Of a DNA stretch of 64,000 nt, positions 1 to 21,487 are shown piece after piece. Each line of letters begins with the position of its first letter. Position 1 is the stretch's first letter. The stretch is from the sequence record MW883059; one strand, 5' to 3'. Both the position numbers and the translations under genes were made by a program. This DNA comes from Escherichia phage vB_EcoM_SYGD1. Below the pieces are notes generated by a model. It had not been told where the DNA came from. It did not search any database and saw only the letters and a program-made list of their open reading frames with translations.

Positions 1-522
1 GACATTTTTGAAAATGGCTATGAAACCGATGACCGAACAGGCACAGGAACAATTGCTTTATTCGGTACTAAATTACGCTGGGATTTAACTAAAGGTTTTC
101 CTGCGGTAACAACTAAGAAGCTCGCCTGGAAAGCTTGCATTGCTGAGCTACTTTGGTTTTTATCAGGAAGCACAAATGTCAATGATTTACGATTAATTCA
201 GCATGATTCGTTAATCCAAGGCAAAACAGTTTGGGATGAAAATTACGAAAATCAGGCAAAAGATTTAGGATACCATAGTGGTGAACTTGGCCCAATTTAT
301 GGAAAACAGTGGCGCGATTTTGGCGGTGTAGATCAAATTGTAGAAGTTGTTAATCGTATTAAAACATTTCCCAACGATAGGCGTCAAATTGTGTCGGCAT
401 GGAATCCAGCTGAACTTAAATATATGGCATTACCACCTTGTCATATGTTCTATCAGTTTAATGTGCGTAATGGTTATCTTGATTTACAATGGTATCAACG
501 CAGTGTAGATGTTTTCTTGGGT
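1..522 (+). CDS. td: thymidylate synthase, exon 1 (5' end lies upstream of window)
   Basis: Frame 1 from base 1 reads DIFENGYETDDRTGTGT...ALPPCHMFYQFNVRNGYLDLQWYQRSVDVFLG (ThyA core); frame is broken at 522/523 by an intron. Confidence 0.95.
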
Positions 523-842
523 TAATTGAGGCCTAGGTATAAGGTGACTTATACTTGTAATCTATCTAAACGGGGGACCTCTCTAGTAGACAATCCCGTG
601 CTAAATTGTAGGACTACCCTTTAATAATTTCATCAGGATTAGTTACTTACCGTGTAAAATCTGATAAATGGAATTGGTTCTACATAAATGCCTAACGACT
701 ATCCCTTTGGGGAGTAGGGTCAAGTGACTCGAAACGATAGACAACTTGCTTTAACAAGTTGAAGATATAGTCTGATCTGCATGGTGACATGCAGCTGGAT
801 ATAATTCCGGGGTAAGATTAACGACCTTATCTGAACATAATG
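523..842 (+). ncRNA. group I self-splicing intron in td (320 nt, endonuclease ORF missing)
   Basis: Exon 1 ends ...TTCTTGGGT, insert starts TAATTGAGGCC and ends ...CTGAACATAATG; removing 523-842 joins ...VDVFLG to LPFNIASY in frame; matches my recollection of the T4 td intron core. Confidence 0.85.
624..695 (+). pseudogene. 3' stub of intron-encoded homing endonuclease (I-TevI-like), rest of ORF deleted
   Basis: In-frame ...ISSGLVTYRVKSDKWNWFYINA followed by TAA inside the intron; no start codon and no GIY-YIG domain upstream. Confidence 0.6.
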
Positions 843-7503: not shown

Positions 7504-7557
7504 GTTTACAAGTCCCTCGTGTTGTGTTATAGTAGACTTACTGACATAACATGAGGA
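7504..7557 (+). promoter_or_regulatory. sigma70-type early promoter cassette, copy A (duplicated at 21105-21158)
   Basis: GTTTAC, 17-18 nt spacer, TATAGT, then leader ...CTGACATAACATGAGGA; 53/54 identical to the second copy. Confidence 0.6.
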
Positions 7558-7564
7558 CTTTATG

Positions 7565-8068
7565 ATGGATTTACAGCTTATTACTACTGAAATGGTCGTT
7601 GAAGCATACGGTGATACTACAGATGGGATTTCTGTATTTAAAGGAAATCGTCGAGTTGGATATATCACCGATCTTAAGAAAGATTTAGCTAAGCAAGTCA
7701 AGCGGAAAACGACCATCAAAGAATATCGAAATCGTCGTCTTGAGCAAGCCCGTGATATGCTTCCTGACGCAGTTGAGGAGATGAAAGTCTTTTTAGAAAA
7801 TCAGCTTGCGAAATATGATTGTGATGTGTTCATTAATCAGACTCAACCTAATGTTCATATTAACAAATGTAAATGCTACATCATCGTTAATCCTTTGACG
7901 GGAAAACATCGTCTTGGAATTAGTAATCCAAATCGTAGTGCATCAGATATGGCAGAAGATGTTGAGGCATGTTTTAAAATTTCTAAATCTCCAGCTGAAC
8001 ATCATATTTTAATTAACGGTCTTTCTCAAGACGATATTGTAGAGGTTATTAAAACTTTATGCATGTAA
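7565..8068 (+). CDS. alc: Alc, inhibitor of host transcription on cytosine-containing DNA
   Basis: About 167 aa MDLQLITTEMVVEAYGDTTDGISVFKGNRR...; start could be ATG 7562 or 7565. Confidence 0.8.
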   Translation: MDLQLITTEMVVEAYGDTTDGISVFKGNRRVGYITDLKKDLAKQVKRKTTIKEYRNRRLEQARDMLPDAVEEMKVFLENQLAKYDCDVFINQTQPNVHINKCKCYIIVNPLTGKHRLGISNPNRSASDMAEDVEACFKISKSPAEHHILINGLSQDDIVEVIKTLCM

Positions 8069-8935: not shown

Positions 8936-10138
<1,203 letters not shown>

Positions 10139-10139
<1 letters not shown>

Positions 10140-10336
10140 TGGCGTGGCATCATGAAACTTGGTCTATTGTTATTGTAAATAGTGGTTTAGTTGGTACTAG
10201 TAATGGGCAATTTTGTGTATTCACTAGTGAAATCAGAGCTTGGGAGGAATGCCTTAAATTAAGAGAAAAGAATCCTGATGTTGAACTAACAGTAAAGAAA
10301 ACTAAACTGCCTTTACCATGGAAAACTTATGAATAA
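10139..10336 (+). CDS. hypothetical protein (cd.5 position)
   Basis: 65 aa from ATG overlapping pseT stop (TAATG). Confidence 0.5.
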
Positions 10337-10529
10337 CACAGAAAAGATTTATCAACTTTGTGATAAAATTGAAAAAGAAAAGAAATATCTATTTTGTTTA
10401 TGGCCTATTGTTGATGGAAGAATAGACTTAGATATTCTTGATTATGAAACAGAAGACATAGTAGATGGTTCAACTTTTGATAATGCGTTGGATGTTATTA
10501 ATTGGCTTGAAGAAAATTATGTGGGGTGA
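10329..10529 (+). CDS. hypothetical protein (cd.4 position)
   Basis: 66-codon ORF. Confidence 0.5.
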   Translation: MNNTEKIYQLCDKIEKEKKYLFCLWPIVDGRIDLDILDYETEDIVDGSTFDNALDVINWLEENYVG

Positions 10530-10531
10530 AT

Positions 10532-10807
10532 ATGTTTCCGACTTATTCTAAAATCGTAGAAGTAGTGTTTAGTCAAATTATCGCTAATAATATGTTTGAA
10601 AAGATTGATAACGCAGCCGAGCTTCGAATTCATGCTCAAGTGACTCATGTATTGAACACTTTGCTTCCAGACCAGGTGGATTCTATTGCAATTACGCTGT
10701 ATCCGGGTTCCGCGCATATCATTGTCGTATTTGGTCTTGATGCTGAGCTAGTCATCAAAGGCGATATTCGCTTTGAATCACAGACATCAGAATTCAAAGC
10801 AATTTAA
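10532..10807 (+). CDS. hypothetical protein (cd.3 position)
   Basis: 91 aa from first ATG (ORF track start 10526 is a GTG). Confidence 0.5.
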   Translation: MFPTYSKIVEVVFSQIIANNMFEKIDNAAELRIHAQVTHVLNTLLPDQVDSIAITLYPGSAHIIVVFGLDAELVIKGDIRFESQTSEFKAI

Positions 10808-10809
10808 TG

Positions 10810-10849
10810 GTTTACTTTATGGTAGAGTTGTGATATTATAGCTCTACCA
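10810..10849 (+). promoter_or_regulatory. early promoter with inverted repeat around the -10 (PeSL-like)
   Basis: GTTTAC 10810-10815; 8-bp stem 10820-10827 pairs with 10842-10849; loop carries TGATATTATAG. Confidence 0.5.
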
Positions 10850-10869
10850 AAACAAATGAGGAAAACAAA

Positions 10870-11106
10870 ATGCTAAGTGAAAAACCAATTACTGTTAAAG
10901 AATTCCAAGAAAAAGTTAAACTATTTGCTCAGGAATTGGTAAATAAGGTTTCTGAACGATTTCCAGAAACATCGGTTCGTGTTATTACCGAAACTCCTCG
11001 TTCAGTATTAGTAATTGTGAATCCAGGTGATGGTGACCAAATAACACATCTCAAATTGGATTTTGATGGATTAGTTGAAGCACAAAGGGTGTATGGCGTA
11101 CTATGA
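10870..11106 (+). CDS. hypothetical protein (cd.2 position)
   Basis: 78-codon ORF with GAGGA RBS. Confidence 0.55.
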   Translation: MLSEKPITVKEFQEKVKLFAQELVNKVSERFPETSVRVITETPRSVLVIVNPGDGDQITHLKLDFDGLVEAQRVYGVL

Positions 11107-11441
11107 TGAATTTAACTGATATAATTGATAATTGTCTTGAAAATGATACTGGCGATCATAGAGCGCTTGATTCTGAAACAGCACAGTTCATTAGAATAAC
11201 TTTAATGAATGATACTCTAGTGAATAGTATTCATCCTTCTGTGTATGATGCTATTATTGTGACGAAGTATCCAGTTGAGCTTCACAAAAAGATGGCTGGC
11301 GCAATTTTTATTGATAAGAAAAACCGCTTTAAAGATGGGCAGAATATAATTAGTTCTGTTATTAAAAGTATAACTAAACTTCGTCACGAAATTTATCGTG
11401 TTGAAACTGCTAAATCTGCTTATCTGGTGATTATGAAATGA
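11103..11441 (+). CDS. hypothetical protein (cd.1 position)
   Basis: 112-codon ORF; start overlaps previous stop. Confidence 0.55.
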   Translation: MMNLTDIIDNCLENDTGDHRALDSETAQFIRITLMNDTLVNSIHPSVYDAIIVTKYPVELHKKMAGAIFIDKKNRFKDGQNIISSVIKSITKLRHEIYRVETAKSAYLVIMK

Positions 11442-12019
11442 AAGCGAGTACAGTACTTCAAATTGCATATTTAGTATCACAAGAATCAAAATGTTGCTCC
11501 TGGAAGGTAGGAGCAGTAATTGAAAAGAATGGACGTATTATTTCTACTGGATATAACGGCTCACCTGCTGGGGGTGTGAATTGCTGCGATTATGCTGCTG
11601 AGCAAGGTTGGTTGCTGAATAAGCCTAAACATACTATCATTCAAGGTCATAAGCCTGAATGTGTATCGTTTGGTTCAACTGATCGTTTTGTCTTGGCGAA
11701 AGAACACCGTAGCGCTCACTCTGAATGGTCGTCTAAAAATGAAATTCATGCTGAACTAAATGCGATTTTGTTTGCTGCACGAAACGGTTCTTCAATTGAA
11801 GGTGCTACTATGTATGTAACACTTTCTCCTTGCCCAGATTGTGCAAAAGCGATAGCTCAATCTGGTATTAAAAAGCTGGTTTATTGCGAAACATACGATA
11901 AAAATAAACCTGGCTGGGATGATATTCTGCGAAATGCAGGTATTGAAGTGTTCAATGTTCCTAAGAAAAACTTGAATAAGTTAAACTGGGAAAATATCAA
12001 CGAATTCTGTGGTGAATAA
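11438..12019 (+). CDS. cd: dCMP deaminase
   Basis: 193 aa; zinc-binding deaminase motifs HAELNAI and PCPDCAKAI. Confidence 0.9.
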   Translation: MKASTVLQIAYLVSQESKCCSWKVGAVIEKNGRIISTGYNGSPAGGVNCCDYAAEQGWLLNKPKHTIIQGHKPECVSFGSTDRFVLAKEHRSAHSEWSSKNEIHAELNAILFAARNGSSIEGATMYVTLSPCPDCAKAIAQSGIKKLVYCETYDKNKPGWDDILRNAGIEVFNVPKKNLNKLNWENINEFCGE

Positions 12020-12255
12020 TGAAATTTCGTTTGGTACAACTCACAGCAATTAGTTCTTATTCTAATGAGAACATTTCATTTGCTGTAGAGTATAAGAAAT
12101 ATTTTTTCTCTAAATGGAAACAGTATTATAAGTCAGAATGGGTTTGTATTGATAGGCCGTATAGTTGGAAATCTGATTTAGAAAAATGCCAAAAGTTGCT
12201 TTCCACTCTTAAAGAACGTGGAACAACTCATATTAAAACTGTAATAGGTAAATAA
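12019..12255 (+). CDS. hypothetical protein (31.2 position)
   Basis: 78-codon ORF; ATG overlaps cd stop. Confidence 0.5.
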   Translation: MKFRLVQLTAISSYSNENISFAVEYKKYFFSKWKQYYKSEWVCIDRPYSWKSDLEKCQKLLSTLKERGTTHIKTVIGK

Positions 12256-12564
12256 ATGAAACTGACAACTGAACAGAAAGTAGCAATTCGTGAAATTTTG
12301 AAAACTAAATTGTCCATGGGTATTTCAAACGTGGTTTTTGAAAAGTCTGATGGTACTATTCGTACTATGAAAGGCACCCGTGATGCTGACTTTATGCCAA
12401 CTATGCAAACCGGTAAATTGACTGAATCTACTCGGAAAGAATCTACTGATATGATTCCGATATTTGATGTTGAGCTTGGTGCATGGCGAGGTTTTTCTAT
12501 TGACAAATTGATTTCTGTTAATGGTATGAAAGTTGAGCATTTGCTTCAATTTATTGGTAAATAA
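12256..12564 (+). CDS. hypothetical protein (31.1 position)
   Basis: 102-codon ORF. Confidence 0.55.
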   Translation: MKLTTEQKVAIREILKTKLSMGISNVVFEKSDGTIRTMKGTRDADFMPTMQTGKLTESTRKESTDMIPIFDVELGAWRGFSIDKLISVNGMKVEHLLQFIGK

Positions 12565-12590
12565 ATGCTTTAAGAATTATTTGTTATTAT
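12564..12590 (+). promoter_or_regulatory. candidate MotA-dependent middle promoter for gene 31
   Basis: MotA-box-like AATGCTTTA, 12 nt, then TATTAT; about 30 nt upstream of gene 31 ATG. Confidence 0.45.
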
Positions 12591-12620
12591 TAATTCATCT
12601 GTTAACAAAAAGGAAAAACG

Positions 12621-12956
12621 ATGTCTGAAGTACAACAGCTACCAATTCGTGCTGTAGGTGAATATGTTATTTTAGTTTCTGAACCTGCACAAGCCGGTGA
12701 TGAAGAAGTTACAGAATCAGGACTTATTATCGGTAAACGTGTTCAAGGTGAAGTTCCTGAACTGTGTGTAATTCACTCTGTCGGTCCTGATGTTCCTGAA
12801 GGTTTTTGTGAAGTTGGTGATTTGACTTCTCTTCCAGTTGGTCAAATTCGAAACGTTCCGCATCCTTTTGTAGCTCTGGGTCTTAAGCAGCCAAAAGAAA
12901 TTAAACAAAAATTCGTTACCTGTCATTATAAAGCTATTCCGTGTCTTTATAAGTGA
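12621..12956 (+). CDS. 31: co-chaperonin for GroEL (GroES analogue needed for capsid protein folding)
   Basis: 111 aa [30 protein letters not shown]... Confidence 0.85.
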
Positions 12957-13103
12957 TATAAATAATAATATGAATTGGGTGTCGGAATAATAAGTTAACC
13001 GAACAATTCTACGTGGTAGTCTACAACTGAGAGATCTGTCGAAAGAAGATGAAATTCAGAAGAACGTGACTACCGAGTTTTAATCTCTAACGAGAATTTT
13101 TAA

Positions 13104-13352
13104 ATGATTAAACAATTACAACACGCTCTTGAACTGCAACGAAACGCATGGAATAATGGTCACGAAAACTATGGCGCATCTATTGATGTTGAAGCCGAAG
13201 CTCTTGAAATCCTGCGTTATTTCAAACATCTGAATCCTGCTCAAACTGCATTAGCTGCTGAGCTTCAGGAAAAAGATGAACTTAAATATGCTAAGCCTCT
13301 GGCTTCTGCTGCACGAAAAGCAGTTCGTCACTTTGTGGTAACACTGAAGTAA
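13104..13352 (+). CDS. rIII: rIII lysis-inhibition accessory protein
   Basis: 82 aa MIKQLQHALELQRNAWNNGHENYGASIDVEAEALEILRYF... Confidence 0.8.
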   Translation: MIKQLQHALELQRNAWNNGHENYGASIDVEAEALEILRYFKHLNPAQTALAAELQEKDELKYAKPLASAARKAVRHFVVTLK

Positions 13353-13597
13353 TTTATTGGAGATTCACTGCCTTAGTGTGAGCTAAAATCGAGGAGCCGT
13401 CGAACTGTCTGATTAATGATTTGCGAATCATTATAGTTTTAAGACCCCGGCAGTTTTACGGTGTACCTCTTGAATGTGAATGATGACGGGTTTATGGTTA
13501 TCCTGGTCGTTAAATATCAAAAAACCTATGTTCCCCTTGAGGGCTTGCGCAGGCAATGCCAATAAGTCCTGCATTTTCATTTAAAAGAGAATTTATA

Positions 13598-13774
13598 ATG
13601 GCAAAACAAGCTAAAGCAAAGAAAGCAGTTGAAAAGAAAGTTGGTGATTCTAAACGCGCTGGTTACAAGCGTGGGTCGAACTCTCGTATCAATCAAACTG
13701 TTGAGAAGATCATGCGCCGAGCACGTGCGGTTCTTCGAGATGATGCTTCTCGTTTTGGTAAGCAGAAAGCATAA
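13598..13774 (+). CDS. small basic protein (30.9 position)
   Basis: 58 aa from ATG 13598, MAKQAKAKKAVEKKVGDSKRAGYKRGSN...; ORF track start at 13556 is further upstream. Confidence 0.55.
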   Translation: MAKQAKAKKAVEKKVGDSKRAGYKRGSNSRINQTVEKIMRRARAVLRDDASRFGKQKA

Positions 13775-13779
13775 GTTGA

Positions 13780-13808
13780 GGACTCCTTCGGGAGTCCTTT
13801 TTTATTTT
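13780..13808 (+). terminator. rho-independent terminator
   Basis: GGACTCC-TTCG-GGAGTCC hairpin followed by TTTTTTATTTT. Confidence 0.65.
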
Positions 13809-13827
13809 CCAAAGATTGCACAAAGTT

Positions 13828-13857
13828 GTTTACAGTACGGTTCCTTTGTGATAGTAT
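13828..13857 (+). promoter_or_regulatory. candidate early promoter upstream of 13885 ORF
   Basis: GTTTAC 13828-13833, about 18 nt, TAGTAT; imperfect inverted repeat CCTTTG...CAAAGG nearby. Confidence 0.4.
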
Positions 13858-13884
13858 TATCTTACACAAACAAAGGAGAATAAA

Positions 13885-14217
13885 ATGAAAACGATTAATC
13901 TGAACGCTGCAGTTAAAACTAAATGCTTCAACGGTAAATATGATGAAACTATGTGGTTCTTAATGGCAGTTGAAGGTGATATTATTGAAGTAGAAACAAC
14001 AGAAGGTATGGGAACAGATTTCACCTTTACAATTCAAGTTCATAATTTCTTTACTGGTTGGATTTATGAATTGAATACAGTAATCGTTGGAAAAATTGAA
14101 CAAAATGAATTAGGCGAATGGTATTATGTTACAGCTCGCCAACGTGCCGAACACTTAATTGAGAAGATGAAAAAAGTTGGTAAACTTGACATGCAACATT
14201 GGAAAGTAGTAAAATAA
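13885..14217 (+). CDS. hypothetical protein (30.8 position)
   Basis: 110-codon ORF with AAGGAG RBS. Confidence 0.6.
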   Translation: MKTINLNAAVKTKCFNGKYDETMWFLMAVEGDIIEVETTEGMGTDFTFTIQVHNFFTGWIYELNTVIVGKIEQNELGEWYYVTARQRAEHLIEKMKKVGKLDMQHWKVVK

Positions 14218-14219
14218 TT

Positions 14220-14259
14220 GTTTACTTTGGTACAGGATATGATATTATATACCTGTACC
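14220..14259 (+). promoter_or_regulatory. early promoter with inverted repeat around the -10 (PeSL-like)
   Basis: GTTTAC 14220-14225; GGTACAGG 14229-14236 pairs with CCTGTACC 14252-14259; loop ATATGATATTATATA holds the -10. Confidence 0.5.
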
Positions 14260-14284
14260 GCAATTAAACATCTTGGAGAATAAA

Positions 14285-14650
14285 ATGAACTACATCAACT
14301 TTGAACGTAAATATGTTTCTACCGGTATTGCAGGTTCTATTGATACTATCTGCCTTTGGAAACATCAAAATGGATCAGTATGCGAAATTGAACAGTATAT
14401 GACTCCTAACTACGTTTATATGCGATTTGAAAATGGCATCACGGTTTCAATCACGAAAGAAGGTTCTTCTTTCAAAATCGCATTAGATGATGATTTCCGT
14501 CAACGTGATTTAGGGACTCATCCTTGCTGGAATGGCGTCAATCGTAAGCTTCTGGTTAAAACTTGGATTCGTCATATTCTGAGTAACAGAGCTAAACCTG
14601 AGCATCTTGAAGCAATCTTTGATGTAGTTCTTAACGAATTTGATATTTAA
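14285..14650 (+). CDS. hypothetical protein (30.7 position)
   Basis: 121 aa from ATG 14285 with GGAG RBS (ORF track start 14273 is a TTG). Confidence 0.6.
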   Translation: MNYINFERKYVSTGIAGSIDTICLWKHQNGSVCEIEQYMTPNYVYMRFENGITVSITKEGSSFKIALDDDFRQRDLGTHPCWNGVNRKLLVKTWIRHILSNRAKPEHLEAIFDVVLNEFDI

Positions 14651-14658
14651 AATAAAAC

Positions 14659-14674
14659 AGGGGCTTCGGCCCCT
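14659..14674 (+). promoter_or_regulatory. intercistronic GC hairpin with UUCG-type loop (no T-tract)
   Basis: AGGGGC-TTCG-GCCCCT between the 14285 ORF stop and the 14691 ORF RBS. Confidence 0.4.
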
Positions 14675-14690
14675 TACTGAGGAAAATACT

Positions 14691-14978
14691 ATGTTTATGA
14701 CTACTTATTTTGATACCCGCAAAAATTTCTGTGAAGTGGTTTTCTCTAAGGCGCCTAAAGACCTTCCTGCTCATTTGCAGCCTACCAGTGAATCGATTAA
14801 AAACTACGTTAATGTAGTCTGCTCTTTAGAGTTCCGTACTGTAAATGGCCGTGATACTTTAGCTATCACTAAACTCAATCGTGAAATTGACATTGACCCT
14901 TCAATTGCGAGTGAAATTAATATTTCTGACATTGGTGGTGGTAATGTTAAATCGCACGGATTTCAGATGAGGTTCTAA
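14691..14978 (+). CDS. hypothetical protein (30.6 position)
   Basis: 95 aa from ATG 14691 with GAGGA RBS (ORF track start 14640 is a TTG). Confidence 0.55.
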   Translation: MFMTTYFDTRKNFCEVVFSKAPKDLPAHLQPTSESIKNYVNVVCSLEFRTVNGRDTLAITKLNREIDIDPSIASEINISDIGGGNVKSHGFQMRF

Positions 14979-15175
14979 TGAAATTCTTTTTGGGTCAAAC
15001 TGTTGAATTAAAGGGAGTCGGTATACCTGGATTAATTTCTAAGGTTTTGCCTGCATTTAAATGGAGAGACGTTCAAATAAAAGAGGCTTATATTGTTTCC
15101 TGGGTAGATGGAAATGAAGACCTTCGTATGGATGATGAATTATCTCCTATCTATGGATTAAAGGAATTAGTATGA
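14978..15175 (+). CDS. hypothetical protein (30.5 position)
   Basis: 65-codon ORF. Confidence 0.5.
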   Translation: MKFFLGQTVELKGVGIPGLISKVLPAFKWRDVQIKEAYIVSWVDGNEDLRMDDELSPIYGLKELV

Positions 15176-15378
15176 ATATAATTAATAAGATTTTTGGAAT
15201 TCAGTACATTAAGGTCACATATAAAGTAACGTATAAAGGTCCGTATACCGATGAACATGAAGAACCACAAGTTAAGTCTATTATATTAGAAAAGGACCCT
15301 AACTGGCCAGTTGAATTTCGTCTTCCTTGCTATGGTCATTGGGCTGATGTTGAAATTATAAGTATTGAAAATGTCTGA
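15172..15378 (+). CDS. hypothetical protein (30.4 position)
   Basis: 68-codon ORF. Confidence 0.5.
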   Translation: MNIINKIFGIQYIKVTYKVTYKGPYTDEHEEPQVKSIILEKDPNWPVEFRLPCYGHWADVEIISIENV

Positions 15379-15829
15379 GCTAGAGATAAGAAGCAATTTT
15401 AGATGGCCATCATGTGCATTAAGCAATTTCGCCCAATGGCCTTTCGTTATGGATGGTATCCAATTTGGAGGTCTCGAAGGATTCCTCCAAGGGTGTAAGG
15501 TGAAAAATGTTGAACAGCAACGTCGTATATTTGGGTTATCCGGGATTGCCGCCCAACAAGCTGGACGAGCTTATGCTAGAGCTCAGGACCGTGGGACCCT
15601 CTTCTGGCTTGGAGTTCCGTTTTCAAGATACTCCCCGGCGTGGAAAGAATTATACACAAATGCATATTTTGAAGCAGCGATCCAAAACAGGGGCTTTCGT
15701 GATGCATTACAAGCCTCGAAAGGAAAAGTTTTGAAGCACAGCATAGCTAGTGGTCTAACAAAAGATGATACAATACTAACCGAAGCTGAATTTATTGATG
15801 TGTTAAACCTACTAAGAGACTCTCTATGA
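15371..15829 (+). CDS. NADAR (YbiA-like) domain protein (30.3 position)
   Basis: 152 aa from ATG 15371; LSNFAQWPFVMDGIQF resembles the YbiA/NADAR FSNFAAWP..VDG motif. Confidence 0.7.
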   Translation: MSELEIRSNFRWPSCALSNFAQWPFVMDGIQFGGLEGFLQGCKVKNVEQQRRIFGLSGIAAQQAGRAYARAQDRGTLFWLGVPFSRYSPAWKELYTNAYFEAAIQNRGFRDALQASKGKVLKHSIASGLTKDDTILTEAEFIDVLNLLRDSL

Positions 15830-20749: not shown

Positions 20750-21136
20750 ATGGAACTTATTACAGAATTATTTGACGGCGCTTCGGCGCCGGTTGTTAAC
20801 TTAAATCCTAAGCATAAAATACCTCAAATTTTTGCTATTCAAGCAGGTGAAGAAAGCGTGCTTCCTGGATTTAGATTTTGTACATACACCTCTGGCGGTG
20901 ATACAAATAAAAACGTTAAGCCAGGCGATAAAATGATGCATATCGTAATGATAGGTGTTAATGAGAAACTATCATTAGTTAAACTTAAAAACTTGGGTGG
21001 AAATCCAATTGGTGTCATTAATGCGGTTTTTGATACTGCTCTTCAAACAATGAAACAGTATAAAATCGACGCATGCCTATTACGCGTACTAAAAAGTTCA
21101 AAATGTAGTTTACAAGTCCCTCGTGTTGTGTTATAG
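20750..21136 (+). CDS. truncated paralogue of the Alt N-terminal region (128 aa)
   Basis: MELITELFDGASAPVVNLNPKHKIPQIF... aligns with Alt residues 2-125; last 9 codons are read from the duplicated promoter cassette. Confidence 0.6.
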   Translation: MELITELFDGASAPVVNLNPKHKIPQIFAIQAGEESVLPGFRFCTYTSGGDTNKNVKPGDKMMHIVMIGVNEKLSLVKLKNLGGNPIGVINAVFDTALQTMKQYKIDACLLRVLKSSKCSLQVPRVVL

Positions 21137-21158
21137 TAGATTTACTGACATAACATGA
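21105..21158 (+). promoter_or_regulatory. sigma70-type early promoter cassette, copy B (duplicate of 7504-7557)
   Basis: GTTTACAAGTCCCTCGTGTTGTGTTATAGTAGATTTACTGACATAACATGAGGA; one mismatch to copy A. Confidence 0.55.
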
Positions 21159-21168
21159 GGAACATAAA

Positions 21169-21459
21169 ATGAAATCTTCTTTGCGCTTTTTAGGTCAAGA
21201 ACTCGTAGTTGAAGGCGTTATTCCTGCTGATAACGCTTTTAATGAAGCTGTTTACGATGAATTTATCAAAATTTTTGGAACAGATAAAAAGTTCGGAATT
21301 TTTCCTTCTGAAAATTTTTCAAAGCCAGAACAGACTGAAAGCATTTTCCAAGGTGTAGTAACAGGTAAATTTGAGTCAGAAGCTCCGGTAAAAATTGAAG
21401 TTTATATTGAAGACAGTTTAGTTGCTTCAGTTGCTGCTTTTATTTCATTCCGTAAATAA
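21169..21459 (+). CDS. hypothetical protein
   Basis: 96-codon ORF with GAGGA RBS; last + strand gene before the convergent terminator. Confidence 0.55.
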   Translation: MKSSLRFLGQELVVEGVIPADNAFNEAVYDEFIKIFGTDKKFGIFPSENFSKPEQTESIFQGVVTGKFESEAPVKIEVYIEDSLVASVAAFISFRK

Positions 21460-21464
21460 AAATA

Positions 21465-21484
21465 TGGGGACCTTTCGGTCCCCA
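21465..21484. terminator. bidirectional terminator between the 21169 ORF (+) and gene 54 (-)
   Basis: TGGGGACC-TTTC-GGTCCCCA with T-rich flank on + strand. Confidence 0.65.
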
Positions 21485-21487
21485 TTG

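Follow-up and report, generated by a model that had tools for sequence, protein, structure and literature searches.

Inverted repeats around the -10 element of T4-type early promoters and a possible hairpin confined to read-through RNA

The early promoters of cd.2 and 30.7

The window analyzed in this study is a 64,000-nt stretch of the genome of Escherichia phage vB_EcoM_SYGD1 (record MW883059), and all positions given below are counted from its first letter. A megablast search with positions 9500-15500 returned 903 phage records, all of them T4-like phages of Escherichia and Shigella, at a best identity of about 97%, and judged by its sequence the window is that of a Tequatrovirus. The gene order is common with T4 (AF158101, minus strand), namely pseT, cd.5, cd.4, cd.3, cd.2, cd.1, and cd, followed by 31.2, 31.1, 31, rIII, 30.9, 30.8, and 30.7. 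A sequence-only reading had pointed to two related promoters in this array, each with an inverted repeat enclosing its -10 element: copy 1 (10810-10849) is located between cd.3 and cd.2, and copy 2 (14220-14259) between 30.8 and 30.7. A third site (13828-13877) lies between 30.9 and 30.8. All three promoter sequences are also present in T4, and the segments carrying the cd.2 and 30.7 promoters matched 462 and 617 phage records, respectively, relative to the 903 records matching the wider region. The features of both copies are as follows.

Copy 1, cd.2 early promoter (T4 Pe133295)
10805-10807, + strand: stop codon TAA of cd.3, just upstream of the -35 element
10810-10815, + strand: -35 element GTTTAC, assigned from its sequence and its T4 counterpart
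10820-10827, + strand: left arm TGGTAGAG, within the -35/-10 spacer
10828-10841, + strand: 14-nt loop with the extended -10 element (TG 10831-10832, TATTAT 10834-10839)
10842-10849, + strand: right arm CTCTACCA
10858-11106, + strand: Shine-Dalgarno sequence GAGGA (10858-10862) and cd.2 ORF (ATG 10870, 78 aa)

Copy 2, 30.7 early promoter
14215-14217, + strand: stop codon TAA of 30.8, upstream of the -35 element
14220-14225, + strand: -35 element GTTTAC
14229-14236, + strand: left arm GGTACAGG, in the spacer
14237-14251, + strand: 15-nt loop with TG (14240-14241) and -10 element TATTAT (14243-14248)
14252-14259, + strand: right arm CCTGTACC
14275-14650, + strand: Shine-Dalgarno sequence GGAG (14275-14278) and 30.7 ORF (ATG 14285, 121 aa)

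The sequences and architecture of both copies proved to be exactly as that reading had described them, with perfect 8-bp arms around the extended -10 element, and the small ORFs that it placed after each promoter, at 10870 and 14285, are cd.2 and 30.7. Its early-promoter call was borne out as well. T4-type early promoters (Pe) are recognized by a GTTTAC-type -35 element, a spacer of 16-18 nt, a TGn-extended -10, and a TAnnnT -10 element; both copies carry GTTTAC and TG-a-TATTAT, with spacers of 17 nt (copy 1) and 16 nt (copy 2). On these sequence features, both sites are taken to be genuine sigma-70-dependent early promoters of the T4 type that are already known in T4. The T4 cassette at 30.7 is identical to copy 2, whereas the cd.2 cassette of T4 differs from copy 1 by a single T-to-C change in the outermost pair of the arms, so that the T4 repeat is 7 bp long. 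In all, Pe133295 and the 30.7 promoter of T4 share with the window copies the same -35, TGn, and -10 elements, repeats, genes, and gene order, and no substantive difference was found; the inverted repeat is not annotated as a feature in the T4 record.

The text of the T4 GenBank record places "the early promoter Pe133295 between cd.2 and cd.3". T4 coordinate 133295 corresponds to the bracketed A of CTCT[A]CC, that is, window position 10846, so that the promoter name used for T4 puts the putative transcription start of copy 1 at this A, inside the right arm. For copy 2, a start at about 14254-14256, 6-8 nt past the -10 element, is predicted. The left arm of copy 1 is hence not contained in the transcript of its own promoter. 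Given the T4-named start within the right arm, the stem is possible only in read-through RNA or in extruded DNA, in line with what had been proposed from the letters.

At 133300-133313 the same T4 record is annotated as "inverted complement of previously reported sequence", and these 14 bases are the loop of copy 1. Queries with flipped loops, which represent an invertible promoter switch, gave no full match in the 462 and 617 phage records or in IMG/VR, and this candidate was rejected; the old T4 report of an inverted loop was concluded to be an error or a cloning artefact.

Association of the repeat with T4-like early promoters

With a stem of at least 8 bp and a loop of 3-20 nt, 55 inverted repeats were counted in the window as compared with 26.4 in dinucleotide shuffles. 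A single 8-bp inverted repeat in this window is thus unremarkable, and it is the placement at a promoter that counts. The shuffle rate corresponds to 2.7e-3 repeats per promoter with a given hexamer in the loop, or 0.014 over the five GTTTAC promoters on the + strand of the window, all of which carry the TG extension; three such repeats were observed among these five. The objection that repeats of this kind might arise by chance at this base composition, which the sequence-only reading had itself raised, was therefore answered by the shuffle control. A generic sigma-70 scan was non-discriminating, with 50 sites in comparison with 56 in shuffles, and the informative promoter class is the GTTTAC-plus-TGn class only.

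The third perfect repeat belongs to the 30.8 promoter. This site had been regarded as a weaker example, a view that its perfect 8-bp arms refute. Further promoters of the window in which the right arm involves the Shine-Dalgarno sequence, together with the terminators called in the region, are listed below.

13828-13877, + strand: 30.8 early promoter of the Shine-Dalgarno-sequestering type (GTTTAC 13828-13833, -10 element TAGTAT 13852-13857), with the arms TCCTTTGT (13842-13849) and ACAAAGGA (13870-13877) forming a perfect 8-bp repeat that encloses the -10 element
7504-7570, + strand: alc early promoter (alc ORF 7562-8068)
21108-21178, + strand: near-identical copy of the 7504 cassette, upstream of an alt.-3 homologue
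13778-13799, + strand: canonical intrinsic terminator (CUUCGG-type tetraloop, then a T-run) a short distance before the 30.8 promoter
21464-21485: second canonical terminator called by the scan

The right arm of the 30.8 promoter overlaps the Shine-Dalgarno sequence of the 30.8 ORF (ATG 13885). At the alc promoter, GTCCCTCGTGTTGTGTTAT of the spacer forms a predicted helix (-24.4 kcal/mol) with ATAACATGAGGAC, a stretch that contains the Shine-Dalgarno sequence GAGGA, and the cassette at 21108 has a Shine-Dalgarno-sequestering helix like that at 7504 (-23.0 kcal/mol); these two promoters have longer, imperfect helices.

The T4 set comprised the 41-42 GTTTAC-N16-18-TAnnnT sites on the early strand of the assembled T4 genome. 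When the 17-nt spacer was tested for duplex formation with the 45 nt after the -10 element, 14 of 41 cognate T4 promoters reached an energy of -12 kcal/mol or lower, as compared with 4.7% of non-cognate promoter pairs. In a strand-symmetric permutation test, perfect Watson-Crick matches of at least 7 bp were counted and the promoter halves were permuted, with the results given below; many of the promoters are paralogous copies, so that these counts are not fully independent.

T4: 14/42 observed, 1.6 expected, p<2e-4
Edwardsiella phage PEi20: 10/22 observed, 2.35 expected, p<2e-4
Erwinia phage Gravdalen: 5/17 observed, 1.48 expected, p=0.008

The repeat is thus common to about a third of T4-like early promoters, and about half of all promoters are without any such repeat. 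Two sub-types were distinguished. In one, the right arm abuts the -10 element (cd.2, 30.7, ipIII with 14 bp, the T4 57990 promoter with 14 bp, and gene 41), and in the other the right arm is the Shine-Dalgarno sequence (30.8, alc, alt.-3, ipII, and regB). A CTACACCAAC-like right-arm sequence is kept even where a promoter has no matching left arm, implying that the right arm is under a constraint of its own. No RNA family of Rfam matched either flagged site. The literature that we searched contained nothing on repeats around the -10 element of T-even early promoters, or on T4 transcript maps, beyond the PeSL papers and T4 reviews discussed below.

Conservation of the 30.7 helix and likeness to known systems

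The 30.7 promoter was compared among orthologues from GenBank phage records, and IMG/VR protein queries (Cd.2, gp30.7, and ligase) gave 5 to 14 loci. Among the 30.7 homologues the position of the helix is constant, beginning 3 nt past GTTTAC and finishing right after the -10 element, while the arms themselves vary as follows (left arm / right arm).

Tequatrovirus: GGTACAGG / CCTGTACC
Loci L022 and L026 and Mosigvirus O157tp3: TTGGTACAGGT / ACCTGTACCAA
Winklervirus: GGTGAGAGTCT / AGACTCTCACC
Marfavirus: GGTGTAGGAGTA / TACTCTTACACC
Kanagawavirus: GCTGATTGAGTGT / ACACTCAATCAGC
Jiaodavirus KP1: TGGGTGGT / ACCACCCA
Karamvirus: CTCCGTTGTA / TACAACGGAG, the right arm being the Shine-Dalgarno sequence

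In an alignment of nine sequences, with Kanagawavirus excluded from the pair count because its helix lies in a different register, 96.1% of the cells were paired, and both sides had changed in 6 of the 12 pairs. None of 500 shuffles reached the observed level, and slid controls were 30-47% paired. As for one-sided changes, five cells keep a standard pair as G.U on the sense strand and two are C.A mismatches. Judged from this alignment, the predicted 30.7 helix was shown to be conserved through compensatory change at orthologous promoters in five genera. The arms of the motB promoter, GGGACCA/TGGTCCC in T4 versus GGGAGCA/TGCTCCC in locus L045, differ in a likewise compensatory manner. Meanwhile, Klebsiella phage KLB8 (Jiaodavirus) has the 30.7 promoter and lacks the repeat, indicating that the hairpin is dispensable for the existence of the promoter.

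The flagged architecture had been said to match the promoter-early stem-loop (PeSL) cassettes of T4-type phages. Arbiol et al. (2010) describe PeSLs as early promoters joined to stem-loops that lie mostly between the promoter boxes or overlap the -10 element (PMC2839356), and Comeau et al. (2014) place the PST/T4 PeSL stem-loop "just upstream" of the promoter (PMC4122927). The systems compared here were RB49/phi1, PST/T4, and nt-1/KVP40 (PMC2839356, PMC4122927); cd.2 and 30.7 are named in the text of neither paper. In a broad sense the likeness held. Each copy, like a PeSL by definition, combines a strong early promoter with a stable predicted stem-loop in a short intergenic space followed by a Shine-Dalgarno sequence, a start codon, and a small non-essential ORF. 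The region is plastic, the stem-loop is built from promoter-internal sequence, and an ORF insertion adjoins it in relatives: in four IMG/VR relatives (L011-L014) the cd.2 cassette is retained from promoter through hairpin to Shine-Dalgarno sequence, and it drives an extra 522-nt ORF between window positions 10864 and 10866, exactly between the Shine-Dalgarno sequence of the cassette and the ATG of cd.2. PEi20 is without the cd.2 promoter.

The geometry, however, differs from the RB49/phi1 type. The RB49 promoters examined read TTGACA-GGGGATC-n3-4-GATCCCC-TATACT, with G4/C4 stems, a loop of 3-4 nt, and the hairpin wholly within the 17-nt spacer, whereas in the flagged copies the arms straddle the -10 element, the right arm is transcribed, and no T-run follows. 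The PST/T4 layout is matched in the window by the terminator at 13778-13799 together with the 30.8 promoter, not by the flagged repeats. The T-even design, whose arms lie on either side of the -10 element, may accordingly be seen, on sequence grounds, as an element of the PeSL kind with a different geometry, and the fit is loose; of the match claimed at the outset, the RB49 geometry did not hold and the terminator role was unsupported.

Phage N4 early promoters contain hairpins with a 5-7 bp stem and a 3-nt loop that are extruded from the DNA and read by the virion RNA polymerase. The cd.2 and 30.7 promoters resemble them in that the inverted repeat is integral to an early phage promoter, and differ in being standard sigma-70 promoters with the -10 element in a loop of 14-15 nt.

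An equivalent logic is established for the T4 genes e, soc, 49, and I-TevI, whose promoters lie inside an inhibitory hairpin (reviewed in PMC3014915). As there, the promoter is located in or after the 5' strand of the helix, so that only the longer upstream transcripts fold and the local mRNA remains open, and in the sister promoters at 13828, 7504, and 21108 the Shine-Dalgarno sequence is likewise taken up in the helix. In contrast, those four genes have late promoters and their Shine-Dalgarno sequence or AUG is always masked, whereas the ribosome-binding site of copy 2 is left free. The T4 reviews give this promoter-in-hairpin logic for a few late genes only (PMC3014915, PMC2988021).

The folding molecule and the proposed role of the hairpin

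In predicted folds of sense RNA, copy 1 reached -17.2 kcal/mol (z -5.9) and copy 2 -16.1 kcal/mol (z -5.3), and none of 200 shuffles was as good. The loop of copy 1 adds five pairs in the sense RNA (three of them G.U), extending the stem to 13 bp with an AUAU loop remaining; the same hairpin was calculated at -10.0 kcal/mol in antisense RNA and -6.4 kcal/mol in DNA. The hairpins end 21 nt (copy 1) and 26 nt (copy 2) upstream of the AUG. The promoters' own transcripts are free of the hairpin: that of copy 1 (10846-10900) folds at -2.0 kcal/mol, no better than shuffles, and that of copy 2 (14254-14315) at -0.4 kcal/mol (z +2.1), with 198 of 200 shuffles folding at least as well. With the start inside the right arm, the promoter's own mRNA would be without the left arm and its leader open.

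The predicted effect on the ribosome-binding site differs among the promoters. For copy 1, the unpaired probability from the Shine-Dalgarno sequence through the AUG decreased from 0.89 in the own transcript to 0.23 in read-through RNA, a drop that comes about via a weak predicted helix of the -35 element with the Shine-Dalgarno sequence. At the 30.8 promoter the predicted accessibility fell from 0.83 to 0.47, as translational gating would have it, whereas for copy 2 it was 0.76 in the own transcript versus 0.81 in read-through RNA. This unchanged accessibility indicates that translational gating is not the general role of the sub-type whose right arm abuts the -10 element.

Based on these observations, we propose the following mechanism. 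The otherwise free -35/-10 spacer of each promoter is complementary to the first bases past its -10 element. Polymerase recruited to the promoter would begin inside the right arm (10846 in copy 1, about 14255 in copy 2) and produce an open, A/C-rich leader, while RNA from upstream promoters would carry both arms, and the intergenic promoter sequence in it would fold as a stable hairpin placed after the stop codon of the preceding gene and ahead of the next ribosome-binding site. Such a hairpin would distinguish read-through transcripts from locally started ones. Where the Shine-Dalgarno sequence itself serves as the right arm, as at the sister promoters of 30.8, alc, and alt.-3, the read-through RNA would go untranslated; at the flagged copies, with a ribosome-binding site that is free (copy 2) or weakly masked (copy 1), the hairpin would act as an intercistronic insulator. 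It may do so by blocking re-initiation or ribosome sliding, by shielding the AU-rich promoter RNA from RNases, or by forming a cap at the 3' end that cleavage leaves on the upstream message. An insulating role, with no specific step named, appears the most likely one for the flagged sub-type. That early promoters with arms straddling the -10 element place a hairpin in read-through RNA only, as an insulator between cistrons, is our main reading, and we give it a probability of roughly 55%.

Among the other explanations considered, the one closest to the original proposal is that the repeats are PeSL cassettes in the sense of Arbiol and Comeau, in which the stem-loop terminates or attenuates upstream transcription and doubles as a homology patch for the shuffling of adjacent small ORFs. 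One phi1 stem-loop was described as equal to rrnB T1 in lowering the expression of a lacZ gene placed after it, and recombination between PeSLs is reported as well (PMC2839356). The 522-nt ORF after the cd.2 cassette and the PEi20 genome, where cd.3 and cd.2 abut without the cd.2 promoter, agree with shuffling. As for termination, the terminator scan of the region called 13778-13799 and 21464-21485 and neither flagged promoter hairpin. Directly 3' of the hairpins stand AAAACAAA (copy 1) and GCAATTAAAC (copy 2), with no T-run in either, and the flagged hairpins thus lack the features of an intrinsic (Rho-independent) terminator. A hairpin abutting the -10 element was present in 0 of 9 promoters with a canonical terminator upstream and in 19 of 72 others, a suggestive difference that is not significant (p ~0.08). 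A structural role rather than a mere homology patch is indicated by the compensatory changes, which occur across genera at the same orthologous positions, and the RB49 stem-loops have both arms within the spacer. We consider this explanation unlikely. An action at the DNA level, whereby a cruciform or altered melting under negative supercoiling tunes or shuts off the early promoter, would make use of the fact that the arms flank an AT-rich center which is exactly the region melted by RNA polymerase; hairpins are predicted on both DNA strands (-6 to -8 kcal/mol, z about -4 to -5), and how early promoters are shut off is described as not known (PMC2988021, PMC3014915). Cruciform extrusion is disfavored, however, by the length of the loops (14-15 nt, and at least 20 nt in the sister promoters), and substitutions of the G.U type are tolerated. 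The flagged promoters also form a continuum with those whose right arm is the Shine-Dalgarno sequence, for which a rationale in DNA is lacking, and a repeat present in about a third of early promoters leaves a general shut-off unexplained. On balance, a DNA-level element seems distinctly improbable.

The repeats might also be a mutational by-product with no selected function, in which template switching at quasi-palindromes homogenizes repeats that arose by chance. Template switching at short inverted repeats is described as homogenizing their arms, with a spacer that can invert (PMC8604942), a behavior that the single T4 report of an inverted copy 1 loop and the roughly twofold excess of 8-bp repeats over shuffles across the window would fit. 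Against this, no loop-inverted variant was present among the 462 and 617 matching phage records, the excess is confined to one promoter position (spacer versus downstream) in three genera, and the arm sequences differ wholly from genus to genus with no change in where the helix lies or in its pairing; we therefore hold such an origin to be very improbable, slightly more so than a role in DNA. The read-through-specific RNA structure is favored by the unstructured own transcripts, the stability of the sense hairpins, and the existence of the Shine-Dalgarno-sequestering sub-type. In particular, sister-promoter loops of at least 20 nt with Shine-Dalgarno right arms fit an RNA structure and not a cruciform, and we infer that the structure acts, and has its effect, in RNA. 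Bridged mismatches (7 G:T versus 4 A:C) were too few to separate RNA from DNA. The greater stability of sense than antisense hairpins (16 versus 5, p=0.011) had been considered as evidence for RNA and was dropped, because the TGTG...TATA consensus alone gives sense-strand G.U pairs and the bias is hence unusable.

For the window itself these results add little, as its promoters are those of T4. Of more use is the wider pattern, namely that pairing between the spacer and the promoter's own leader occurs in a third to half of the early promoters of three genera. The pairing, kept by compensation, offers a testable account of how densely packed, multiply promoted early genes could be kept apart from transcription arriving from upstream. 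Such pairing may also explain how promoter-plus-ORF cassettes can move without disturbing their neighbors, and it provides natural designs for synthetic promoters with a built-in read-through insulator. More tentatively, it is conceivable, though we would not expect it, that throughout the Tevenvirinae the sequence-free spacer of sigma-70 early promoters has been co-opted to form an RNA helix with the gene's own leader, by which the cassette would be insulated from read-through and active from no promoter but its own; if true, early gene cassettes would as a general rule owe their context independence, and with it their capacity to be shuffled, to this helix. The leader strand in such a helix would be either the 5' end or the Shine-Dalgarno sequence of the gene.

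A separate 9-bp inverted repeat with a 13-nt loop, GCTTTGAAT/ATTCAAAGC (10770-10800, + strand), was also observed at the 3' end of cd.3, ending 10 nt upstream of the -35 element of copy 1.

Loop orientation and right-arm conservation

According to the phage T4 record AF158101, positions 133300-133313 were previously reported as the inverted complement. These 14 bases correspond to window 10828-10841, which is exactly the loop between the arms of the inverted repeat surrounding the -10 element of the cd.2 promoter. Since the inverted orientation of this loop was absent from all natural genomes searched (matching phage records and IMG/VR), the earlier T4 report probably reflects an artefact that the inverted repeat caused during sequencing or cloning.

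In the early promoters of Edwardsiella phage PEi20 (L047 and L048) and Erwinia phage Gravdalen (L049 and L050), the first transcribed bases follow a common conserved motif, approximately CTACACCAAC. This motif was retained even where the spacer carried no complementarity to it, and thus the right arm, located downstream of the -10 element, is under a separate constraint of its own.

Elements adjoining the cd.2 and 30.7 promoters

Window 10770-10800, + strand: 9-bp inverted repeat (13-nt loop), GCTTTGAAT/ATTCAAAGC
Window 14186-14215, + strand: TTGACA-N18-TAAAAT site, matching the consensus at 11/12 positions
L011-L014, about 975-1496: extra 522-nt segment, falling between window 10864 and 10866

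The 9-bp repeat lies within the final codons of cd.3, with 10 nt separating it from the cd.2 -35 element downstream, and read-through RNA entering from upstream promoters would therefore bear two adjacent hairpins; folding of window 10765-10853 as RNA gave -26.1 kcal/mol. The additional segment was found 3' of the cd.2 promoter cassette in four IMG/VR Tequatrovirus contigs (L011-L014). It starts with ATG, its opening residues reading MSEWFEEDKV..., and cd.2 would then be translationally coupled to it in these contigs. The TTGACA-N18-TAAAAT site, at the end of 30.8, precedes the 30.7 promoter by 35 nt. It also occurs in T4 (at 129952), and may be either a second promoter in tandem or a match that arose by chance.

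Repeated cassettes and other elements of the window

Window 7504-7570, + strand: promoter-leader cassette of ~55 nt upstream of alc
Window 21108-21178, + strand: promoter-leader cassette of ~55 nt upstream of the alt.-3 homologue
Window 21464-21485, both strands: hairpin ATGGGGACC-tttc-GGTCCCCAT, called terminator-like on each strand
Window 513-794, + strand: group I catalytic intron, matched by Rfam family RF00028 at 70.3 bits

The alc and alt.-3 cassettes are near-identical and form a direct repeat 13.6 kb apart, which could be a substrate for recombination. In read-through RNA, each was predicted to form a long helix burying the Shine-Dalgarno sequence GAGGA. The 21464-21485 hairpin appears to be a bidirectional terminator where the early and late regions meet. 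Judging by gene order, the RF00028 intron presumably corresponds to the one that T-even phages carry in nrdB.
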